Source of the DNA: Massilibacillus sp.
GTDB taxonomy: Bacteria > Bacillota > Negativicutes > JARBTT01
Assembly (NCBI GenBank): GCA_029240055.1
Contig: JARBTT010000002.1
Coordinates: 1 to 59,148 of the forward strand
Reading direction: 5' to 3'
DNA length: 59,148 bases
Below, piece by piece: positions 13,367 to 44,617 of this stretch. The notes beneath the pieces were generated by a model. That model searched no databases. It saw only the letters and a list, made by a program, of their open reading frames with translations, and was not told the origin of the DNA. How positions within the stretch are numbered: the first letter of the stretch is position 1; the number at the start of each line of letters is the position of its first letter. The translations under genes were made by a program, and so were the position numbers.

Positions 13367-14582
13367 CATATTGTTACTTTTTCTATGTTTTTGGGCATAG
13401 AAAAGGCACGGTCATTTCTGCCGTGCTCTATCGTTTATTATTAGGTTATGCGATAGTTCGGACTGTATCTTCCTCTACGTGAGAGGGGGTTATGTCAGTC
13501 TCTCGGGGTTTATTATGCAAGTTCTTTAATTGTAGTCATTAAAGAATTTAAATCATTCTTTATATCTTTCCCCCATAATTCGTAAAACTTCATTCGGTAT
13601 TTTTTGTAGTATCCAAACTTTCTTTTATCTCGGTTCATGTGGTCAATCTGTTGGCTATTTAAATCTTCTAGTTTATATATTTCTGGATTACCGTGCCAAT
13701 AATCTCCTTGTACCTCAAGGAATATATTTGCATCAACAATATAAAAGTCTGGATAATATTTACCAAAATTATATTGAAAAATATATTTAACATTATGAAG
13801 GTCTAGCCATTCTTTAACCATTAATTCAATATCAGTATTGCTTGAACCGCCAATAATTTGGCATTTTACACTACAGTATTTACCTCTATGATGTGTTTTG
13901 TGATGGGGATAAATTTTCATTTCTTTACCACAATATTGGCAATGCCCTATTTCTGTTTCTACTGTTGCATCGTGATTCCTACAATCCAAACTGCAATATT
14001 CAGTATCCTTATCTTTCCGGTTATAAAATTTATTACCGCAATATTTACAGAACTTAATATCTTTTGGATTATAACGACTGCAATCCTTTGAACAATACTG
14101 CGCTAAAGAATTATTAGCCATAAAAACTTTCTCACATATAATGCAAGTCTTTTTATATGGTCTGCCATTTCTTCGGCATTCTAATCCACAAAACTTTTTA
14201 TCTGGATTAGAAGAAGCTATTTCAAATTCTTTACCGCAAACTAAACATTTTTTATCTCCAATAATTAAACGTTTTTTAGGTTTGCAATCAATAGAACAGT
14301 ATACTTGTCTATTGTACTTTCTTTCAAAGACAACTCCACAAGTAGGACAAATCTTTTGTGCCATATTTATCATCCTCTCCAATGATACTCTCAATAATAA
14401 TATAGGCAGGAGGTGAGAGCACCTCTTTTCGACCCGTCGGTCTAGCCTATATCAATATTATATCATATTTAAGGTTGATTTTGCATAATAATTTCCCACG
14501 GTCTTGACCTCCTCAGGCTTTTAACCGTTATAAAACCCTGTTCTTGTAGTACATCGCTGTACTAGGCGGCAAGTTTAGGTCT
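13367..14582 (-). mobile_element. group I intron (1216 nt) with homing endonuclease ORF
   Basis: Pairings that fix the junctions: P1 is exon GGCGGU (14588-14583, U.G at the junction) with intron GCCGCC (14570-14565). P10 is intron AACUU (14575-14571) with exon-2 AAGUU (13366-13362). The intron ends in G (13367). P2 UAGUACA-GCGA-UGUACUA lies at 14564-14547. Several 3' hairpins are present. Confidence 0.85.
13513..14364 (-). CDS. intron-encoded homing endonuclease: 5 zinc-ribbon repeats plus Vsr/DUF559-like PD-(D/E)XK domain
   Basis: Five tandem CxxC(G/E)..F..(Y/F)C(S/G)xxC modules, then YPDFYIVDANIFLEVQGDYWHGN (Vsr-like). Start taken at MAQKICPTCG with a GGAGAGG SD. Confidence 0.7.
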   Translation of the reverse strand: MAQKICPTCGVVFERKYNRQVYCSIDCKPKKRLIIGDKKCLVCGKEFEIASSNPDKKFCGLECRRNGRPYKKTCIICEKVFMANNSLAQYCSKDCSRYNPKDIKFCKYCGNKFYNRKDKDTEYCSLDCRNHDATVETEIGHCQYCGKEMKIYPHHKTHHRGKYCSVKCQIIGGSSNTDIELMVKEWLDLHNVKYIFQYNFGKYYPDFYIVDANIFLEVQGDYWHGNPEIYKLEDLNSQQIDHMNRDKRKFGYYKKYRMKFYELWGKDIKNDLNSLMTTIKELA

Positions 14583-25361: not shown

Positions 25362-26795
25362 CTAACTAATTAATCCTGACCAGCTCTTGCCTGTTTGCAA
25401 TTCTTCAAAGCAGTCACTAAGACCATCGACTATATCATCATGTTTCCCTTCTGGGAATGAATCACATTCATTTAACAATATTTCGTTCCAGTCACCAGCA
25501 AGCATTAATATATTGCCAGCCTGCCACTGGCTACTTAGTGGTAAACATCTTGTAACCTTATCTCCCGTCATTCTTCTTGAACGGACAATATACCCAGACA
25601 AGAGCTTAATGAAGTCGTCGCGGACGCTCTTACCAGCAGCGCCTGGATCTTGAGGTATGAAATTTATAACTCTATTGAATTTATTCTTATCAAACTTAGC
25701 GGTTTCAAGGACTTTCTTTTTTACGTCATTCGAAGTCCATCTTCCATGTAATAAATCTAGTATTATATATCTACCATCATCTAATTTACCCATTAATGGG
25801 CCTGCTGTTGCATCTGGTGATGGTCGACTTGGTGTGGGGATTGTAGCGGCTAAATCGTATGCTCTGCAAAATTTTCTTATTTTACCGGGTATCTGGTTAA
25901 CTATTTCAATCTTGGCTTTAGGAAGATACATCCCTGCACTTTCTTTTACACGCCAATTTCCATACAGCAATCGTCCTTTTTCTACTGTATTTAGTGCATT
26001 CAAGTTAGCTAAATACTCAGGATTTTGCTCTAATAGTATTTTATTATCAAATATCGAACTAGCAATAAACGTAAACGATTTTATAAGTTTAGGGTCTGTA
26101 TTATATTTAATAGATAATTCTTCACGGCTATCTCCCCATTTAAATTCATCATCAATAACTAAAAAGTAGCGCAAAATCCCACTTTTTTCTTTTACAGGAA
26201 AACCATCATCGTCAATATACCACTCAATTAATTCAGCTACAAAGCTGTTAGGGTCTGGATTGCACGTGCCAATTACTTTCGGAACTACGCCGCATACGCT
26301 ACGATTTCTCGAAAGCATATACATTATCTGAGCCTTGGTGAAATGCGTCATTTCATCAAATGCTATAAGTGCAATAGCGGCACCTTGAAAATCATATACA
26401 GTATTATCCAGTTGAAGATGTTGGAAAGTTATTCGTGCTCCACTAGGAAATTTCATCGTTGGCTTTGGGCTAACTACAGGAATAGCACCTTTTAACGGCA
26501 TTAATTTTAAAGCATCTGACCATAATCCGCCTTCGTTCATTATCTGAGTTGAATTTCTACGGAATATAGTGGCAGTAAAACCCTTTACGTTAATATTAAG
26601 CATACTACGTAAAAGCAACGCATAGGTTTTACCACCTCCGGCTGCTCCCCCGAATATTGTAATATCAGCTTGACTATTTAGAAATGCTGTTTGTGGTCCC
26701 TGTTGTGGCTTAAAGTTCTTATCAATCTCTTTTTTCTTCGCTTCTGCTTCTAAAAGCAACAAGTATTCAATTTCCTGCTCTTTAGTTAACGCCAC
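25362..26795 (-). CDS. terL: terminase large subunit
   Basis: Walker A is FGGAAGGGKTYAL, followed by a nuclease-half acidic motif. Start is most likely the GTG at 26795, after GGTGGTGG (the track start at 26852 lacks an SD). Confidence 0.85.
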   Translation of the reverse strand: MALTKEQEIEYLLLLEAEAKKKEIDKNFKPQQGPQTAFLNSQADITIFGGAAGGGKTYALLLRSMLNINVKGFTATIFRRNSTQIMNEGGLWSDALKLMPLKGAIPVVSPKPTMKFPSGARITFQHLQLDNTVYDFQGAAIALIAFDEMTHFTKAQIMYMLSRNRSVCGVVPKVIGTCNPDPNSFVAELIEWYIDDDGFPVKEKSGILRYFLVIDDEFKWGDSREELSIKYNTDPKLIKSFTFIASSIFDNKILLEQNPEYLANLNALNTVEKGRLLYGNWRVKESAGMYLPKAKIEIVNQIPGKIRKFCRAYDLAATIPTPSRPSPDATAGPLMGKLDDGRYIILDLLHGRWTSNDVKKKVLETAKFDKNKFNRVINFIPQDPGAAGKSVRDDFIKLLSGYIVRSRRMTGDKVTRCLPLSSQWQAGNILMLAGDWNEILLNECDSFPEGKHDDIVDGLSDCFEELQTGKSWSGLIS

Positions 26796-26883
26796 AAAAC
26801 CACCACCTATAAAACGACATAAAAAATAGACGTTGTTCAGTACAACGCCCAAAACTTATAATTTTATATATAAAAATAGCGTG

Positions 26884-36485: not shown

Positions 36486-37412
36486 CTAATCAATCTCCGT
36501 ATAGCTGGCATCAATTTCCATTTCTTCTTGTAGCTGCTTTATGCGGTTACGTCTATCTTCATCTGACATTAGTTCAACCTTGTTCGTGATGTTAATCTCT
36601 TTCTTATCAACTAACATTCCACTTGCTTTCATGTATAGTTCAATGGCTTTGGTCTTATCGTGGAACTTTACTTCGCGCTCAGTTATCTCTCCACCGCCCT
36701 TACATGGCGTTACTTTTACTTTAATTGATTGGATTGCCGCGAGGTCATCATCACTCGCACTCTCTAATATACTTCCATCTTTTCCCACTATACGAGCAGG
36801 ATTAGCTAATGCAATTCTACCTAGTTCTCTTAGTGTTGTATCAGCATTTATACCGCTTCTCTTGCGTCTCTCTGCCAGTGCAACTTGTATGTGAGCGTTA
36901 ACATCTGGTCTATCATATAACCTACTGCCAAGACTTGCTGCGCTCTGTACACTATAGCCTGCTCTAATAGCTGCATCCTGCTTGTTTAAGTCTATTAAGA
37001 ACTCTTCAACAAACCGTGCTTCTCTATCACTTATCTCTGGTAGATTATCACGGCTATAACTCTCATATACCAATGCTGGATTAGTATCATTGATCTGCTT
37101 AGTAACGATAGGTACATACATCTCTTTAGTCCTTGATATATCTAGCCTAACGCCATGCTCTTGCGTAACATCCGCATTGCCTTGCATTATATCGCCAGTG
37201 TTTTGCATTGTCGCATTGTCTGTTTGCTCGTTTTGCATTGCATCCCATTTAGACCAATATCTAGTCCTCCAACTATTCACACTTGCCGGACTAACTTTGT
37301 ACTTTTTAGCTAACTGCTCGTATGTATAGTTACCTATCTGGTAGTCAATGTATGCTTTGTAATATTGTTTAGATTTGGTTTTATTGTCTATATCTAGTGC
37401 CAAATAAATCAC
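36486..37412 (-). CDS. terS: terminase small subunit (Terminase_2 type) with N-terminal HTH
   Basis: EARFVEEFLIDLNKQDAAIRAGYSVQSAASLGSRLYDRPDV is the classic Terminase_2 core. Exact start is uncertain (GTG at 37412 or TTG at 37403). Confidence 0.8.
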   Translation of the reverse strand: MIYLALDIDNKTKSKQYYKAYIDYQIGNYTYEQLAKKYKVSPASVNSWRTRYWSKWDAMQNEQTDNATMQNTGDIMQGNADVTQEHGVRLDISRTKEMYVPIVTKQINDTNPALVYESYSRDNLPEISDREARFVEEFLIDLNKQDAAIRAGYSVQSAASLGSRLYDRPDVNAHIQVALAERRKRSGINADTTLRELGRIALANPARIVGKDGSILESASDDDLAAIQSIKVKVTPCKGGGEITEREVKFHDKTKAIELYMKASGMLVDKKEINITNKVELMSDEDRRNRIKQLQEEMEIDASYTEID

Positions 37413-43045: not shown

Positions 43046-43267
43046 TTAATCACAAACCTGCAAACCAGTCGACATTTCACCGCTAATTATTTCAACTCTA
43101 CCCTCTGTTACTATTGCGTAAGCATGAGGATGATAATATTTATTTAAAAATCCTAGCAATGGTAAAGACGCTTTTTGCAGTTCTTCTGCTTTTTGTTTGT
43201 ATTCTTCTGTATTCACGTTAAGCACATCCTTTAATTTATTTATATTTATATGTATCCAAACATACAT
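43046..43267 (-). CDS. hypothetical protein
   Basis: Natural-looking 73 aa from the ATG at 43267 (MYVWIHININ..). The track TTG start at 43285 would overlap the tRNA-like element. No clear SD. Confidence 0.5.
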   Translation of the reverse strand: MYVWIHININKLKDVLNVNTEEYKQKAEELQKASLPLLGFLNKYYHPHAYAIVTEGRVEIISGEMSTGLQVCD

Positions 43268-43280
43268 GTTTTTGTTTTGA

Positions 43281-43375
43281 TGCAAGCGGTTGGAATCGAA
43301 CCAATTTTCCTGTTTCCACCAAATAGTTTAAATTCGGAATTTGTTCCTGGCACTTCCCACAGTGCAGCCACTTGC
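43281..43375 (-). tRNA. tRNA-like element, non-canonical core (95 nt)
   Basis: Canonical parts: a 7-8 bp acceptor stem (GCAAGUG(G)/(C)CGCUUGC), T-arm UUGG-UUCGAUU-CCAA and D-arm GCAC-UGUGGGAA-GUGC. Non-canonical part: 44 nt between the D and T arms, with only an atypical arm CCGAAU-UUAAACU-AUUUGG. Confidence 0.4.
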
Positions 43376-43385
43376 ATATTTTTTA

Positions 43386-44150
43386 AAAGCCGAAGTTATT
43401 AGCTTCGGATTTTTGTGTTGTTAGAGTGGTAAGGATTTGCACCTTACATGAGATTATTTGCGCGTTAGTCGGCACTCTTTACAGAGGATAAATGGTTTTA
43501 TGATTTTCACGCAATTTATTGGCTAACCCTATCTTCCGGCTATTTACCCGACCTGTCTTCCAGCATAGGCTTGAGCGTTAGCCATCCCTTGACCATTATT
43601 TAGCGTCTACCTATTCACGCCACACCCTATTATCCTTATGCCTATCAAGTATAAGAACGTTATTTAGTTGGCGGTTTAAGCATCACCGCCAAGCATCTGA
43701 GCCACCCGTAAATCAGTCTCTCAATTGAGCCACCTTATTACTAAGTCTCTCTTTATGCCGTTTCCCCACCCTTTCAGCTCTGAGCACTCCATTGGTACAC
43801 GGCAGGCAACCATATCATTTAGGCGGTAATCGTGAGCCACGCGCTCGTTACCTTCGGTTGCCTCTTACCCTTCAAGTCTGATAATAAATGATATATTGTA
43901 TTTTAGATTGGTTAGGCAGGATTTTCATCCTATATTTCGTATTTTGCACTTCGTAAATGCTTTTAGCTACTTACGTTCAGATTACTTCTCTAACCCTCGT
44001 TATTGTCTGCTTAACCAATCTATTATTACGTTTGCCCCACACGCGCAAAACGTTGTCATGCCCAACCGCTTTTTAATGAGATGCTACTCTGCCGGTACGC
44101 CTTGGCATGTCCAAATGTATTAAAAGTGTATTTCTACAACTCTTCACACT
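43386..44150 (-). ncRNA. candidate large structured ncRNA (class unverified; GOLLD/ROOL-like size and context)
   Basis: ORF-free in a gene-dense genome. The plus strand is C-rich, so the minus transcript is G-rich. It has several 8-15 bp long-range helices. GNRA-capped hairpins form only on the minus strand. Boundaries are approximate. Confidence 0.55.
43390..43408 (-). terminator. hairpin CCGAAG-N7-CUUCGG at the 3' side of the candidate RNA
   Basis: 6-bp stem with U4 after it on the minus strand and U5 on the plus strand. It could be a terminator or part of the RNA. Confidence 0.35.
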
Positions 44151-44164
44151 ATCATTTTATTACA

Positions 44165-44617
44165 TTACGCACCCCTAAAAGTGACATGTTTTTGACATTC
44201 TAAATTATCAACTAATCCTAATTCAATACTGACAGCCAATATAATCACATTTGTCCATCTATACATGGTTCTCTTATCAATGTTTAATTCCTTGGCTATT
44301 CCTTCATCAGTTCTGGTTTGTGGCTTAGTCCAGTATTTTAATACTACTAACTTGTACTGCTCTTCTGTTAGTTCGTTAAGTACCGATTGTATAGCAGCTA
44401 TTGTCCGTTCTATTTGTTTAATTCGCTTACTAGTAATTAACTGTAATGCCTTTTTCTCGCACGTCCTACTAATATCTGTACCTCGAATACCACTATCATC
44501 AAATGCAGGTGAGTTATAAATAATTTGTTGCCGTTCTTCGCCTAAATCGCGTATTGTCTGCAAATAATCACGCAATTCACACTCAACATATGCTTTTATC
44601 TCTTTTTTTATTGCCAT
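44165..44617 (-). CDS. rinA: RinA-family late transcriptional activator
   Basis: ECELRDY, GIRGTDISRT, EEQYKLVVLKYW and GIAKELNIDKRTMYRW (sigma region-4-like HTH). Confidence 0.6.
   Translation of the reverse strand: MAIKKEIKAYVECELRDYLQTIRDLGEERQQIIYNSPAFDDSGIRGTDISRTCEKKALQLITSKRIKQIERTIAAIQSVLNELTEEQYKLVVLKYWTKPQTRTDEGIAKELNIDKRTMYRWTNVIILAVSIELGLVDNLECQKHVTFRGA

Follow-up and report, generated by a model that had tools for sequence, protein, structure and literature searches.

The gap of about 770 bases that follows a RinA-family late activator gene in the analysed window (59,148 nucleotides of a Massilibacillus sp. contig) is an island of non-coding RNA modules carried on the minus strand, and comparison with other phages identifies positions 43422-43629 within it as a predicted autonomous 208-nt gene of a large tRNA-Leu-derived phage RNA family, here called the scaffold RNA. 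The gap is probably a patchwork of small structured RNA modules and not one giant RNA. The minus strand is assigned because tRNA polarity and G.U pairs fit that strand alone. Structural support in the gap derives from comparison with relatives and is strong for 43422-43629 only. At a probability of roughly 60%, the module island carries an autonomous tRNA-Leu-derived 208-nt RNA that is late-transcribed, processed and non-decoding, with its variable arm as the working part. The elements of the scaffold RNA, defined by a composite motif and a scaffold alignment, and the five helices of the pseudoknotted domain within its insert are as follows.

43422..43629, minus strand: tRNA-Leu-derived scaffold RNA, 208 nt
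43623-29 with 43422-28, minus strand: acceptor stem, 7 bp
43603-22, minus strand: U8 G9 and Leu-type D arm
43447-43602, minus strand: insert in place of the anticodon arm, 156 nt
43442-47 with 43429-34, minus strand: T stem, 6 bp
43435-41, minus strand: T loop UGCAAAU
43447..43597, minus strand: pseudoknotted domain with five helices (model R1)
43584-88 with 43450-54, minus strand: helix Ha
43577-83 with 43521-27, minus strand: helix Hb
43548-52 with 43468-72, minus strand: helix Hc, the pseudoknot
43508-14 with 43458-64, minus strand: helix Hd
43483-86 with 43475-78, minus strand: helix He

The composite scaffold motif occurs once in the window and in none of 100 shuffles. The family retains the features of a bacterial type II tRNA-Leu: a 7-bp acceptor stem, U8, a D arm of the form GCGG-AAUAGGUAG-ACGC with A14, A15, G18 and G19, a U48 equivalent, a T arm with a 7-nt loop, and a long arm at the variable-arm position. 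A real phage tRNA-Leu(UAA) in one compared locus (L149) has a D arm nearly identical to that of the scaffold RNA. The family departs from tRNA-Leu in lacking the anticodon arm, which is replaced by a linker of ~10 nt together with the long arm, in a 6-bp T stem that gives a 13-bp acceptor/T stack, in having no encoded CCA, in a variable discriminator base, and in G at T-loop position 55, where 235 of 238 real tRNAs of the compared loci have T. The sixth T-stem pair is G-C in 53 and A-U in 5 of 58 sequences and unpaired in none. Specifically, the window conforms to the D-arm consensus, U8 G9 followed by GCG(U)GAAUAGGUAGACGC, but for one inserted U that is also present in L002 and L005, and its T arm reads CAU-GUAAGG-UGCAAAU-CCUUAC, with an A-U junction before it and the stem stacked directly on the acceptor. 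The acceptor stem is UAGGGUG/CACUCUA in the window, UGGGGUG/CGCCCCA in L002 and UGGAGUG/CACUCUA in L010; in L002, acceptor and T stem alike show compensatory changes.

Covariation supports this architecture across the family. In the 58-sequence scaffold alignment, 99.7% of cells are paired and covariation is seen in 7/7 acceptor and 4/6 T-stem pairs, acceptor pairing having been a selection rule of alignment A3; the covariation score is 0.71-0.74 against 0.17 for shuffled alignments, a value reached by 0/500 shuffles. Because the search patterns included G55 and the D-arm core, the invariance of both is partly built in. The insert length is too variable for a full-length covariance model of the scaffold, and model R1 thus describes the insert domain only. 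Its alignment has 93.8% of cells paired, with covariation in 24 of 27 pairs (score 0.83 vs 0.24 shuffled). The pseudoknot Hc, which was left out of R1, is 98.3% paired and covaries in all 5 of its pairs. R1 recovers 11 further full-length members (E 9e-17 to 3e-3); the 184 bits of the window against it arise by construction, the window being one of the R1 seeds. Three pairings proposed by eye in the sequence-only reading coincide with this covariation-supported structure: 43520-27/43577-84 is helix Hb, the CUCU-GUAA-AGAG hairpin (43475-86) is helix He, and the hairpin 43429-34/43442-47 is the T arm. Its call for covariation is answered strongly in 43422-43629 and poorly in modules A to E, which are lineage-specific and have little comparative support, with 1 to 3 compensatory changes each.

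The scaffold, with varied inserts, is found in well over 250 phage or prophage contigs, mostly of Bacillota. The short-insert pattern gives at least 120 matches in IMG/VR, and 97 of the 120 matches listed have at least 7 acceptor pairs; the long-insert pattern gives 61 contigs, 57 of which have an acceptor of 6 bp or more. At least 93 matches of a genome scan pass the scaffold test (among 120 listed), most named hosts being Bacillota; the few matches in Proteobacteria and one in an archaeal genome were set aside as chance matches. A 16-nt pattern proved too short for the metagenome collection, where 119 of the 120 matches listed are due to chance. A sister set has the normal U55 loop and ordinary 7/5 or 8/5 geometry. 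The family is apparently undescribed: ARAGORN, Rfam 15 and GenBank annotation detect none of it, and open-access literature searched by topic and by conserved sequences yielded no description of it, one elsewhere being possible.

Members occupy two genomic positions. In the first, the RNA lies between a late-activator gene (RinA or DUF1492) and HNH/TerS/TerL, on the strand of its neighbours; in the second, it lies inside phage tRNA arrays, co-oriented with real tRNAs, as in Lactobacillus phage LP65 and other phages. LP65 and Lactobacillus phage Sha1 are carriers of the element that exist in culture. The first position is compatible with a doubtful alternative in which the late operon has a long 5' leader that spans the whole gap and acts in cis, by antitermination, pausing, stabilisation or RNase P processing, with the tRNA-like body as no more than a processing or folding signal. 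The gap does begin at a conserved -10-like box beside rinA, some 50 nt of the initial transcribed sequence are near-invariant, and members in temperate phages are mostly located between late-activator and packaging genes. The second position speaks against such a leader, since these members reside in tRNA arrays of virulent phages, far from late promoters. In other phages, moreover, the same slot is filled by real tRNAs (also PMC10763512). In the window a terminator-like hairpin follows the element, and the genes for the small and large terminase subunits come 6 kb and 16 kb later, respectively. As a separate observation, the best matches of the terminase large subunit are at most 46% identical and come from unrelated phages.

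The coding content of the gap agrees with an island of RNA modules. From 43386 to the RinA stop (44165), a recount bears out the earlier statement that there is no minus-strand ORF of 60 aa or more, the longest being 30 and 39 aa, and only one such plus-strand ORF, of 75 aa. None of the six short ORFs of the gap matches a PHROG family, and a disrupted protein gene as the origin of the gap was rejected on that ground. The G+C enrichment noted earlier is likewise real (0.42 in 43386-44150, 0.33 in the flanks and 0.35 in the entire window), the C/G counts of 22/8 (43741-43800) and 18/11 (43561-43620) are exact, and each helix listed by the sequence-only reading is present as given, including both minus-strand GNRA hairpins; its caveat on G.U and A.C positions in the long helix 43904-19/44007-22 is correct. 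A helix density above chance is not borne out. For the region as a whole, the MFE z-score reaches only -1.6 (minus strand) and -1.9 (plus strand), and 120-nt sliding z-scores in the gap (mean -0.54) are not distinguishable from those in the flanking genes (mean -0.29, p = 0.2). The sole folding-energy outlier is a 128-nt unit at 43903-44030 (z = -5.45). The core of the earlier proposal, a non-coding stretch with structured minus-strand RNA, is upheld.

Its more ambitious part, a single giant RNA in the class of GOLLD and ROOL, does not survive comparison. Rfam searches at gathering score and at permissive thresholds yield nothing in the gap, either in the window or in the relatives searched. 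No ROOL (RF03087) match reaches the gathering score (99.1 bits) anywhere in the window, and 43150-44300 has none even at E<=10; GOLLD (RF01998) has none at gathering score or E<=10, nor in L001-L003, L011 and L012. The niche that had been invoked for these classes, phage DNA beside a tRNA-like gene, is confirmed: ROOL and GOLLD occur in phages of Lactobacillales and relatives beside tRNA genes, and in LP65 a true ROOL (128.4 bits) lies in the tRNA cluster that holds the scaffold RNA, ~1.1 kb away. Both classes measure 570-800 nt, whereas the well-supported unit here is 208 nt, tRNA-derived and without a covariance-model match. A single ornate RNA of ~770 nt, as a distant relative or analogue of GOLLD/ROOL, would suit this niche and the contiguous, ORF-free, G+C-enriched stretch, and is nevertheless highly improbable: the ROOL model that gives 128 bits in LP65 finds nothing here even at E<=10, the folding energy is unremarkable, the part with the best support belongs to an autonomous family that stands alone in other phages, and the relatives share no core.

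Six relatives were compared (L001, L002, L003, L010, L011 and L012). RinA-based retrieval gave three relatives from IMG/VR and none from the genome collection, and protein homologues with their contigs gave three more short contigs representing two further phages (L010/L011 and L012). A large ornate RNA was looked for as a conserved core over the full length, which is absent from the six. They instead carry modules of 26-250 nt in differing, freely exchanged combinations and have only ~35 promoter-proximal bases in common. L001 is without modules B, C and E and the Leu-like RNA; L003 is without most of A, B, C, D, the Leu-like RNA and the second tRNA-like element. In more distant RinA phages the gap is just 114-372 nt long. 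BLAST against GenBank phages, which the sequence-only reading had proposed, returned no match for the gap, 24 kb of the window or the 208-nt element, and modules A to F, H and the second tRNA-like element had none among ~320 other phage loci by nhmmer or blastn. In order of transcription, the remaining features of the island are as follows.

44165..44617, minus strand: RinA-family late transcriptional activator gene, 150 aa, directly upstream of the gap (PHROG 36 and 248, transcription regulators)
44154..44159, minus strand: -10-like box next to the rinA stop codon, TAAAAT in the window and TGnTATAAT in relatives
44029..44151, minus strand: module A, promoter-proximal leader, found in 5 of 6 relatives
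43903..44028, minus strand: module B, hairpin domain, window only (z = -5.45 folded alone)
43773..43902, minus strand: module C, common to the window and L002 only
43699..43772, minus strand: module D, irregular hairpin 43738-51/43699-711, common to L001 and L002
43668..43692, minus strand: module E, 8-bp hairpin UUGGCGGU / ACCGCCAA, 95-97% identical with L003 and L010/L011
43390..43408, minus strand: G+C-rich hairpin CCGAAG...CUUCGG followed by CUUUU, terminator-like in both directions, in the window only (L002 is without it)
43282..43375, minus strand: irregular tRNA-like element, common to L001 and L002

The RinA homologues carry a precomputed PF05263 match and the JGI name RinA. At the position of the -10-like box, L002, L010 and L012 have TGATATAAT, followed in the six-relative alignment by the invariant AGTGTGAAGAGTTGTAGAAATACAC. 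A late promoter with a conserved leader is likely at the start of the gap, with a putative transcription start at ~44147-44150. The first 49 nt of module A are near-identical among relatives despite RinA protein differences of up to 27%. Hairpins are predicted at 44117-44149, at 44104-09/44057-62 around 44078-44089, and at 44028-35/44045-53; covariation is seen in 1 of 31 predicted pairs, so the fold of module A is not established.

Module B combines a 16-bp closing helix (44007-22/43904-19) with the GGAU-GAAA-AUCC hairpin (43919-30) and forms an inverted repeat. It is missing from all relatives, in which one AATA marks the junction of the flanking sequence; the window has this AATA twice, and the module resembles an insertion. 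A mobile-element origin, considered for the inverted ends and the AATA duplication, was rejected, as no second copy is found in the window, the compared loci or IMG/VR. Module C contains the helices 43855-63/43804-12 and 43799-803/43757-61 and a nested hairpin at 43825-52; in L002 its outer helix shows one compensatory G-C to A-U change and the tip of its third helix a 29-nt insertion. Module D contains two GGUGGCUCA repeats (repeat family D1). One of its pairs changes from U-A to C-G, a compensatory substitution, and several of its G.U pairs are possible on the minus strand only. The neighbours of module E differ between the window, L003 and L010/L011, and its sequence is invariant and therefore offers no covariation test of the pairing. 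For the terminator-like hairpin, the plus-strand call comes from a terminator scan and the minus-strand reading was made by eye.

The sequence conservation of module A without covariation also bears on a reading in which the conserved object is a site in the DNA and not an RNA, for example a late promoter or RinA operator, a recombination hotspot, or a cos or pac site. Packaging genes are close by, the match in phage phiJL-1 stops 2 bp short of the end of the linear record, and the 3' part is identical among many L. plantarum phages. For the family as a whole this reading has very little to commend it: stems stay paired through G.U intermediates that would be A.C on the opposite strand, double compensatory changes are frequent, and the orientation is always that of the neighbouring tRNAs and genes. 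It can still hold for the first ~50 nt of module A.

Under the favoured reading, a processed and non-decoding tRNA-Leu-derived RNA, the island would be transcribed from a RinA-dependent late promoter, and its tRNA-like bodies would be excised by RNase P and RNase Z, as in phage tRNA arrays, to leave a stable RNA. The excised RNA may engage host readers of the tRNA elbow and acceptor end, namely processing enzymes, the CCA-adding enzyme and possibly LeuRS. It is uncertain whether LeuRS would charge this RNA, since only half of the Bacillota branch has A as discriminator base and CCA is not encoded. The 13-bp stack, G55 and the absent anticodon would keep the RNA off EF-Tu and the ribosome. The hypervariable arm would be the working part and may serve as a decoy, sponge or guide against a host factor, perhaps a defence factor; neither a protein partner nor a target came to light in the analysis. 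Our guess is that the scaffold RNA is a processed, non-decoding tRNA mimic that presents its variable arm.

Known RNAs offer partial parallels. In the window, ARAGORN finds no tRNA gene, 43422-43629 has no Rfam tRNA match (RF00005 gathering score 29), and neither ARAGORN nor Rfam reports a tmRNA. The scaffold RNA resembles tmRNA in its tRNA-like acceptor/T-arm body and in having a large pseudoknotted domain where the middle of a tRNA would be; both RNAs can be phage-encoded. The tmRNA body is of alanine type, lacks a D stem and carries a tag reading frame, whereas the D arm of the scaffold RNA is complete and Leu-type and no tag frame is seen. The stable RNA species 1 and 2 of phage T4 (rnaC and rnaD) are tRNA-like, tRNA-linked and non-decoding, with tRNA-like processing; we know of no function for them. 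tRNA-Other of B. cereus (cited in PMC5389517) is also tRNA-like, non-decoding, encoded with tRNAs and processed as they are, and differs in being chromosomal. The T4 species and tRNA-Other are likened to the scaffold RNA by description only, no sequence relation being known. The tRNA-Sec and allo-tRNAs (8/5, 9/4, 8/4 and 9/3) likewise depart from the canonical acceptor/T geometry, and some are members of phage tRNA clusters; elements neighbouring the scaffold RNA give weak tRNA-Sec matches. These RNAs differ in that the anticodon arm is kept and a decoding role is ascribed to them (Mukai et al. 2017, PMC5389517). The 7/6 split of the scaffold RNA is not among the geometries in the excerpted text of that paper.

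A bolder and rather speculative joint reading extends the favoured one to a widespread, unrecognised phage class of non-decoding tRNA-Leu mimics, processed by the host, perhaps leucine-charged, kept off EF-Tu and the ribosome, and bearing the arm as a programmable anti-host effector. It would apply to Bacillota phages and, through the U55 sister set, probably to other phages too, and the arm would, for example, occupy LeuRS or a tRNA-directed defence system as a decoy or sponge. The usual explanations for tRNA genes in phages are codon usage and evasion of tRNA-cleaving defences; a tRNA-Leu body without an anticodon fits neither and so points to another role for the tRNA fold. Standard annotation does not detect the family in spite of its abundance and strong constraint, and its genomic place is fixed, behind a late-activator gene or within tRNA arrays. 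It provides a natural tRNA scaffold that displays inserts of ~50 to 170 nt. ORF-free gaps behind RinA, ArpU or DUF1492 genes accordingly merit checks for RNA genes in annotation. Since ROOL and the scaffold RNA occur in the same RNA-gene clusters, joint study is perhaps worthwhile.

The second tRNA-like element (43282-43375) has an 8-bp acceptor, a D arm and a UUCGAUU T loop on a 3-4-bp stem, and is without a standard anticodon arm. ARAGORN makes no tRNA call on it, and it scores 26.4 bits against Rfam tRNA-Sec, for which the gathering score is 47. Its weak T stem and missing anticodon loop, together with the insertion-like module B and the zero ARAGORN tRNAs in the window, could be taken for a decaying phage tRNA array in which the tRNA-like pieces are insertion-disrupted pseudogenes and the rest is neutral spacer. 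As an account of the whole island this is improbable: the D arm and T loop are near-constant and compensatory changes occur among hundreds of diverse phages, and the insert has a covarying pseudoknotted fold of its own, neither of which is expected of pseudogenes. For 43282-43375 itself and some of modules A to E, decay to tRNA pseudogenes or neutral spacer is plausible. The central 6-bp hairpin of this element, compared by eye, stays paired through one compensatory change.

The ORF-poor gap downstream of the RinA-family activator gene contains, within a mosaic of modules, a tRNA-derived non-coding RNA termed here the scaffold RNA. The surrounding phage genome is low in GC (35%) and carries nearly all of its genes on the minus strand. 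As the sequence-only reading had stated, the gap is poor in ORFs: between the RinA stop and 43386 the longest minus-strand ORFs span 30 and 39 aa, the plus strand holds a single ORF above 60 aa (75 aa), and none of the short ORFs matches a PHROG family. The gap is also richer in GC than its flanks (0.42 vs 0.33), and the base counts and all helices of that reading prove exact. Folding energy gives no backing to the unusual helix density it had seen, with whole-region z-scores of −1.6 (minus) and −1.9 (plus) and 120-nt windows averaging −0.54 in the gap versus −0.29 in neighbouring genes (p = 0.2, no difference); the only outlier is 43903–44030 (z = −5.45).

Relatives were retrieved via the RinA protein as IMG/VR contigs L001, L002 and L003, together with three short assemblies of two phages (L010/L011; L012). 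An ORF-free gap follows rinA in all of them (376 to ~940 nt), and distant RinA phages have a gap of 114–372 nt. The six gaps have blocks of 26–250 nt in common at 75–100% identity in differing combinations, which argues against the proposal that the whole region is one giant RNA. The modules are arranged as follows.

Modules of the gap and their occurrence
44165–44617: RinA-family activator gene; the gap begins at its stop
44029–44151: module A, in five of the six relatives
43903–44028: module B, window only
43773–43902: module C, window and L002
43699–43772: module D, window, L001 and L002
43668–43692: module E, a hairpin, window, L003 and L010/L011
43422–43629, minus strand: scaffold RNA, window and L002; L010/L011 carry this scaffold around a different insert
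43282–43375: tRNA-like element, window, L001 and L002

The relatives also carry modules absent from the window, and the universal part of the gaps is confined to ~35 bases that follow a −10-like box, itself conserved and adjoining the rinA stop codon (TGATATAAT in L002, L010 and L012; TAAAAT in the window), which we infer to be a late promoter. Module A is conserved in sequence, but covariation is seen in only 1 of 31 predicted pairs; its role may lie at the DNA level, as promoter or operator, or in an RNA leader. Between the window and L002, three compensatory changes fall in modules C and D taken together, and several G.U pairs there can form on the minus strand only. Module B, of which no second copy was found, resembles an inserted element in its 16-bp inverted repeat and the AATA duplicated at its borders. 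The tRNA-like element combines an 8-bp acceptor stem with a tRNA-like T loop and lacks a standard anticodon arm. Apart from the scaffold RNA, no module has a detectable relative in ~320 other phage loci. A 79-aa ORF with a TTG start (43046–43285, minus strand) overlaps the tRNA-like element; it is probably overlong, because a conserved protein of 56 aa (MNTEEYKQKAEELQKASLP...) in the relatives uses a start further inside, and the matching start in the window appears to be a GTG.

The suggested kinship with GOLLD or ROOL RNAs finds no support in Rfam 15, which has no match in the gap either at gathering score or at E<=10 with permissive filters; the ROOL model is functional in such a setting, scoring 128 bits in Lactobacillus phage LP65. 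The sole weak match near the gap is tRNA-Sec at 43282–43375 (26.4 bits vs a gathering score of 47), and ARAGORN calls neither a tRNA nor a tmRNA anywhere in the window. The int-alpA RNA (RF02996) at 14387–14452 on the minus strand is the window's sole Rfam family at gathering score (52.2 bits vs 35.8).

The scaffold RNA retains a tRNA-Leu-type body, built on the minus strand from the following elements.

Anatomy of the scaffold RNA (43422–43629, minus strand), 5' to 3'
Acceptor 5' strand: UAGGGUG, then UG
D arm of tRNA-Leu type, after UG: GCGUGAAUAGGUAGACGC
Insert after the D arm: 156 nt, with CAU at its end
T arm after the insert: GUAAGG-UGCAAAU-CCUUAC
Acceptor 3' strand after the T arm: CACUCUA

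Compensatory changes in the L002 copy affect acceptor and T stem alike, and L010/L011 and the unrelated phage L005 combine the same body with unrelated ~70-nt inserts. In an alignment of 58 scaffold-only sequences, from which the inserts were taken out, 99.7% of cells pair versus 73% in shuffles. Covarying pairs comprise 7/7 in the acceptor, whose pairing was a selection criterion, and 4/6 in the T stem, whose pairing, like the flanking UGGCGGAAUA and the CAU junction, was no selection criterion. The D stem, D loop and T loop are invariant, the D-arm and T-loop cores being part of the search pattern. Moreover, the base preceding the 5-bp T stem pairs with a supposed linker base in every sequence (G-C 53, A-U 5, unpaired 0); the sixth pair is always formed, giving a 6-bp T stem and a 13-bp acceptor/T stack. 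Inserts open with a linker, mostly of 10–13 nt, followed by a long hairpin that in most members ends two bases before the T stem, at the site of the tRNA-Leu variable arm. The discriminator is A in 50% and U in 30% of members, and CCA is not encoded.

The long inserts fall into similarity groups, with the window in one and LP65 in another. A covariance model seeded with the inserts of the window, L002 and L400 and comprising helices Ha, Hb, Hd and He recovers 11 more full-length members (E 9e-17 to 3e-3); in the resulting alignment 93.8% of cells pair versus 62.5% in shuffles, and 24/27 pairs covary. A fifth helix outside the model, Hc, links the Hb loop to the Hd internal loop and is 98.3% paired, with 5/5 pairs covarying. 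The window's insert is thus a conserved pseudoknotted domain. Helices listed earlier by eye fall within this structure: Hb corresponds to 43520–27/43577–84, He to the CUCU-GUAA-AGAG hairpin, and the T arm to 43429–34/43442–47.

The short-insert pattern GGTAGACGC-N55-85-GGTGCAAATCC has at least 120 matches in IMG/VR; among those listed, 97/120 show an uninterrupted run of 7 or more acceptor pairs where it is expected, and 114/120 a run of 5 or more. The genome collection likewise gives at least 120 matches, 93 of those listed passing a strict scaffold test. Named hosts among the listed matches are mostly Bacillota (Lactobacillaceae, Leuconostoc, Weissella, Enterococcus, Listeria, Bacillus and Paenibacillus relatives, Clostridia, Erysipelotrichaceae); matches in a few Proteobacteria and one archaeal genome failed the test and fit chance expectation. 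The pattern with a 140–170-nt spacer occurs once in the window, in 0/100 shuffles and in 61 IMG/VR contigs, 57 of which have an acceptor stem of at least 6 bp.

Replacing the T loop of the scaffold pattern with GGTTCRAATCC defines a sister set (L441–L560) with at least 120 matches in IMG/VR, 100/120 of those listed having an acceptor of at least 6 bp. These are tRNA-Leu bodies with a normal UUCRAAU T loop, the D arm UGGCGGAAU(U)GGUAGACGC, mostly ordinary 7/5 or 8/5 geometry, recurring acceptors such as AGUCAGG/CCUGACU, an A discriminator in nearly all inspected matches and a 52–82-nt insert replacing the anticodon arm. With introns allowed, ARAGORN assigns them scattered isotypes, and the set therefore has no consistent anticodon.

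Building on the observed anatomy, family and genomic context of the scaffold RNA, a pathway can be proposed in which transcription would start at the late promoter, RNase P and RNase Z would free the tRNA-like bodies, and the product would be a stable RNA recognised by host tRNA-binding proteins. Its exclusion from translation would rest on the 13-bp stack, on G55 and on the lack of an anticodon, and the variable arm is likely the effector. In Staphylococcus, GUGC in place of GTPsiC marks the non-translating cell-wall glycine tRNAs. Recognition by bacterial LeuRS relies on the discriminator and on D-arm and tertiary features, not on the anticodon; relative to tRNA-Leu, the scaffold RNA retains the D-arm features and the U48 equivalent, whereas its discriminator is not conserved in the Bacillota branch, and charging by LeuRS is uncertain for this reason. 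The family is apparently new, with no earlier description in Rfam 15, ARAGORN, GenBank annotation or the open-access literature. Its nearest known counterparts are tRNA-Leu, tmRNA, phage T4 stable RNAs, B. cereus tRNA-Other, and tRNA-Sec and the allo-tRNAs (PMC5389517).

The scaffold RNA and its neighbours always share a strand, and 0/23 GenBank phage records annotate it. Upstream genes include a ~150-aa protein (RinA or DUF1492 where named), YopX and DUF1642, and downstream genes include an HNH endonuclease (21 loci), TerS and TerL. Lactobacillus phage Sha1 shows the order RinA, 520-nt gap with scaffold RNA, HNH, TerS, and phage H1-Guo has DUF1492 instead of RinA. The surrounding ORF-free gap has a median of 503 nt and reaches at least 790 nt in one quarter. 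Real tRNAs occur in 33/114 IMG/VR loci, all those within 600 nt being co-oriented with the scaffold RNA, and tRNA arrays harbour several of the long-insert members. One long-insert copy, in the virulent phage LP65, is embedded in the tRNA array on the tRNA strand and overlaps the 46-aa 'orf80'. LP65 also carries its ROOL RNA (RF03087; L259 3687–4261, NC_006565.1; 128.4 bits, E 1e-26) inside the array, ~1.1 kb downstream of this copy and directly after tRNA-Pro, just upstream of which lies a weak tRNA-Sec-like match (L259 3504–3591, 30.3 bits). Other expanded tRNA-like genes are present in the same phage tRNA arrays as the scaffold RNA, matching the Rfam tRNA model end to end over 116–125 nt (L440 4178–4293 and 4473–4597; L393 9117–9237).

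In L005, an abiF RNA motif (RF03085; 3899–3934, minus strand; 43.2 bits vs a gathering score of 37) follows the scaffold RNA after ~20 nt; the next ORF has 93 aa, no AbiF-like gene lies nearby, and the motif may be a phage-borne orphan copy of a defence-associated RNA. Many L. plantarum phages of differing types share an identical stretch of 34–36 nt at the scaffold RNA 3' end. In phiJL-1, the T arm and acceptor 3' strand (L260 1501–1533; NC_006936.1 36640–36672) stop 2 bp short of where the linear record ends, a placement that could reflect a link to the genome end or a mere record cut point. Some phages may carry two copies, as L230 (IMG/VR) has separate T-arm-end matches near 488–510 and 2538–2560. 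In the window, the terminase genes lie ~10 kb apart (small subunit 36486–37412, large subunit 25362–26852), separated by ERCC4 nuclease, metallophosphoesterase, integrase-family, AntA and dGTP diphosphohydrolase-like genes, and one gene between the subunits is on the plus strand.
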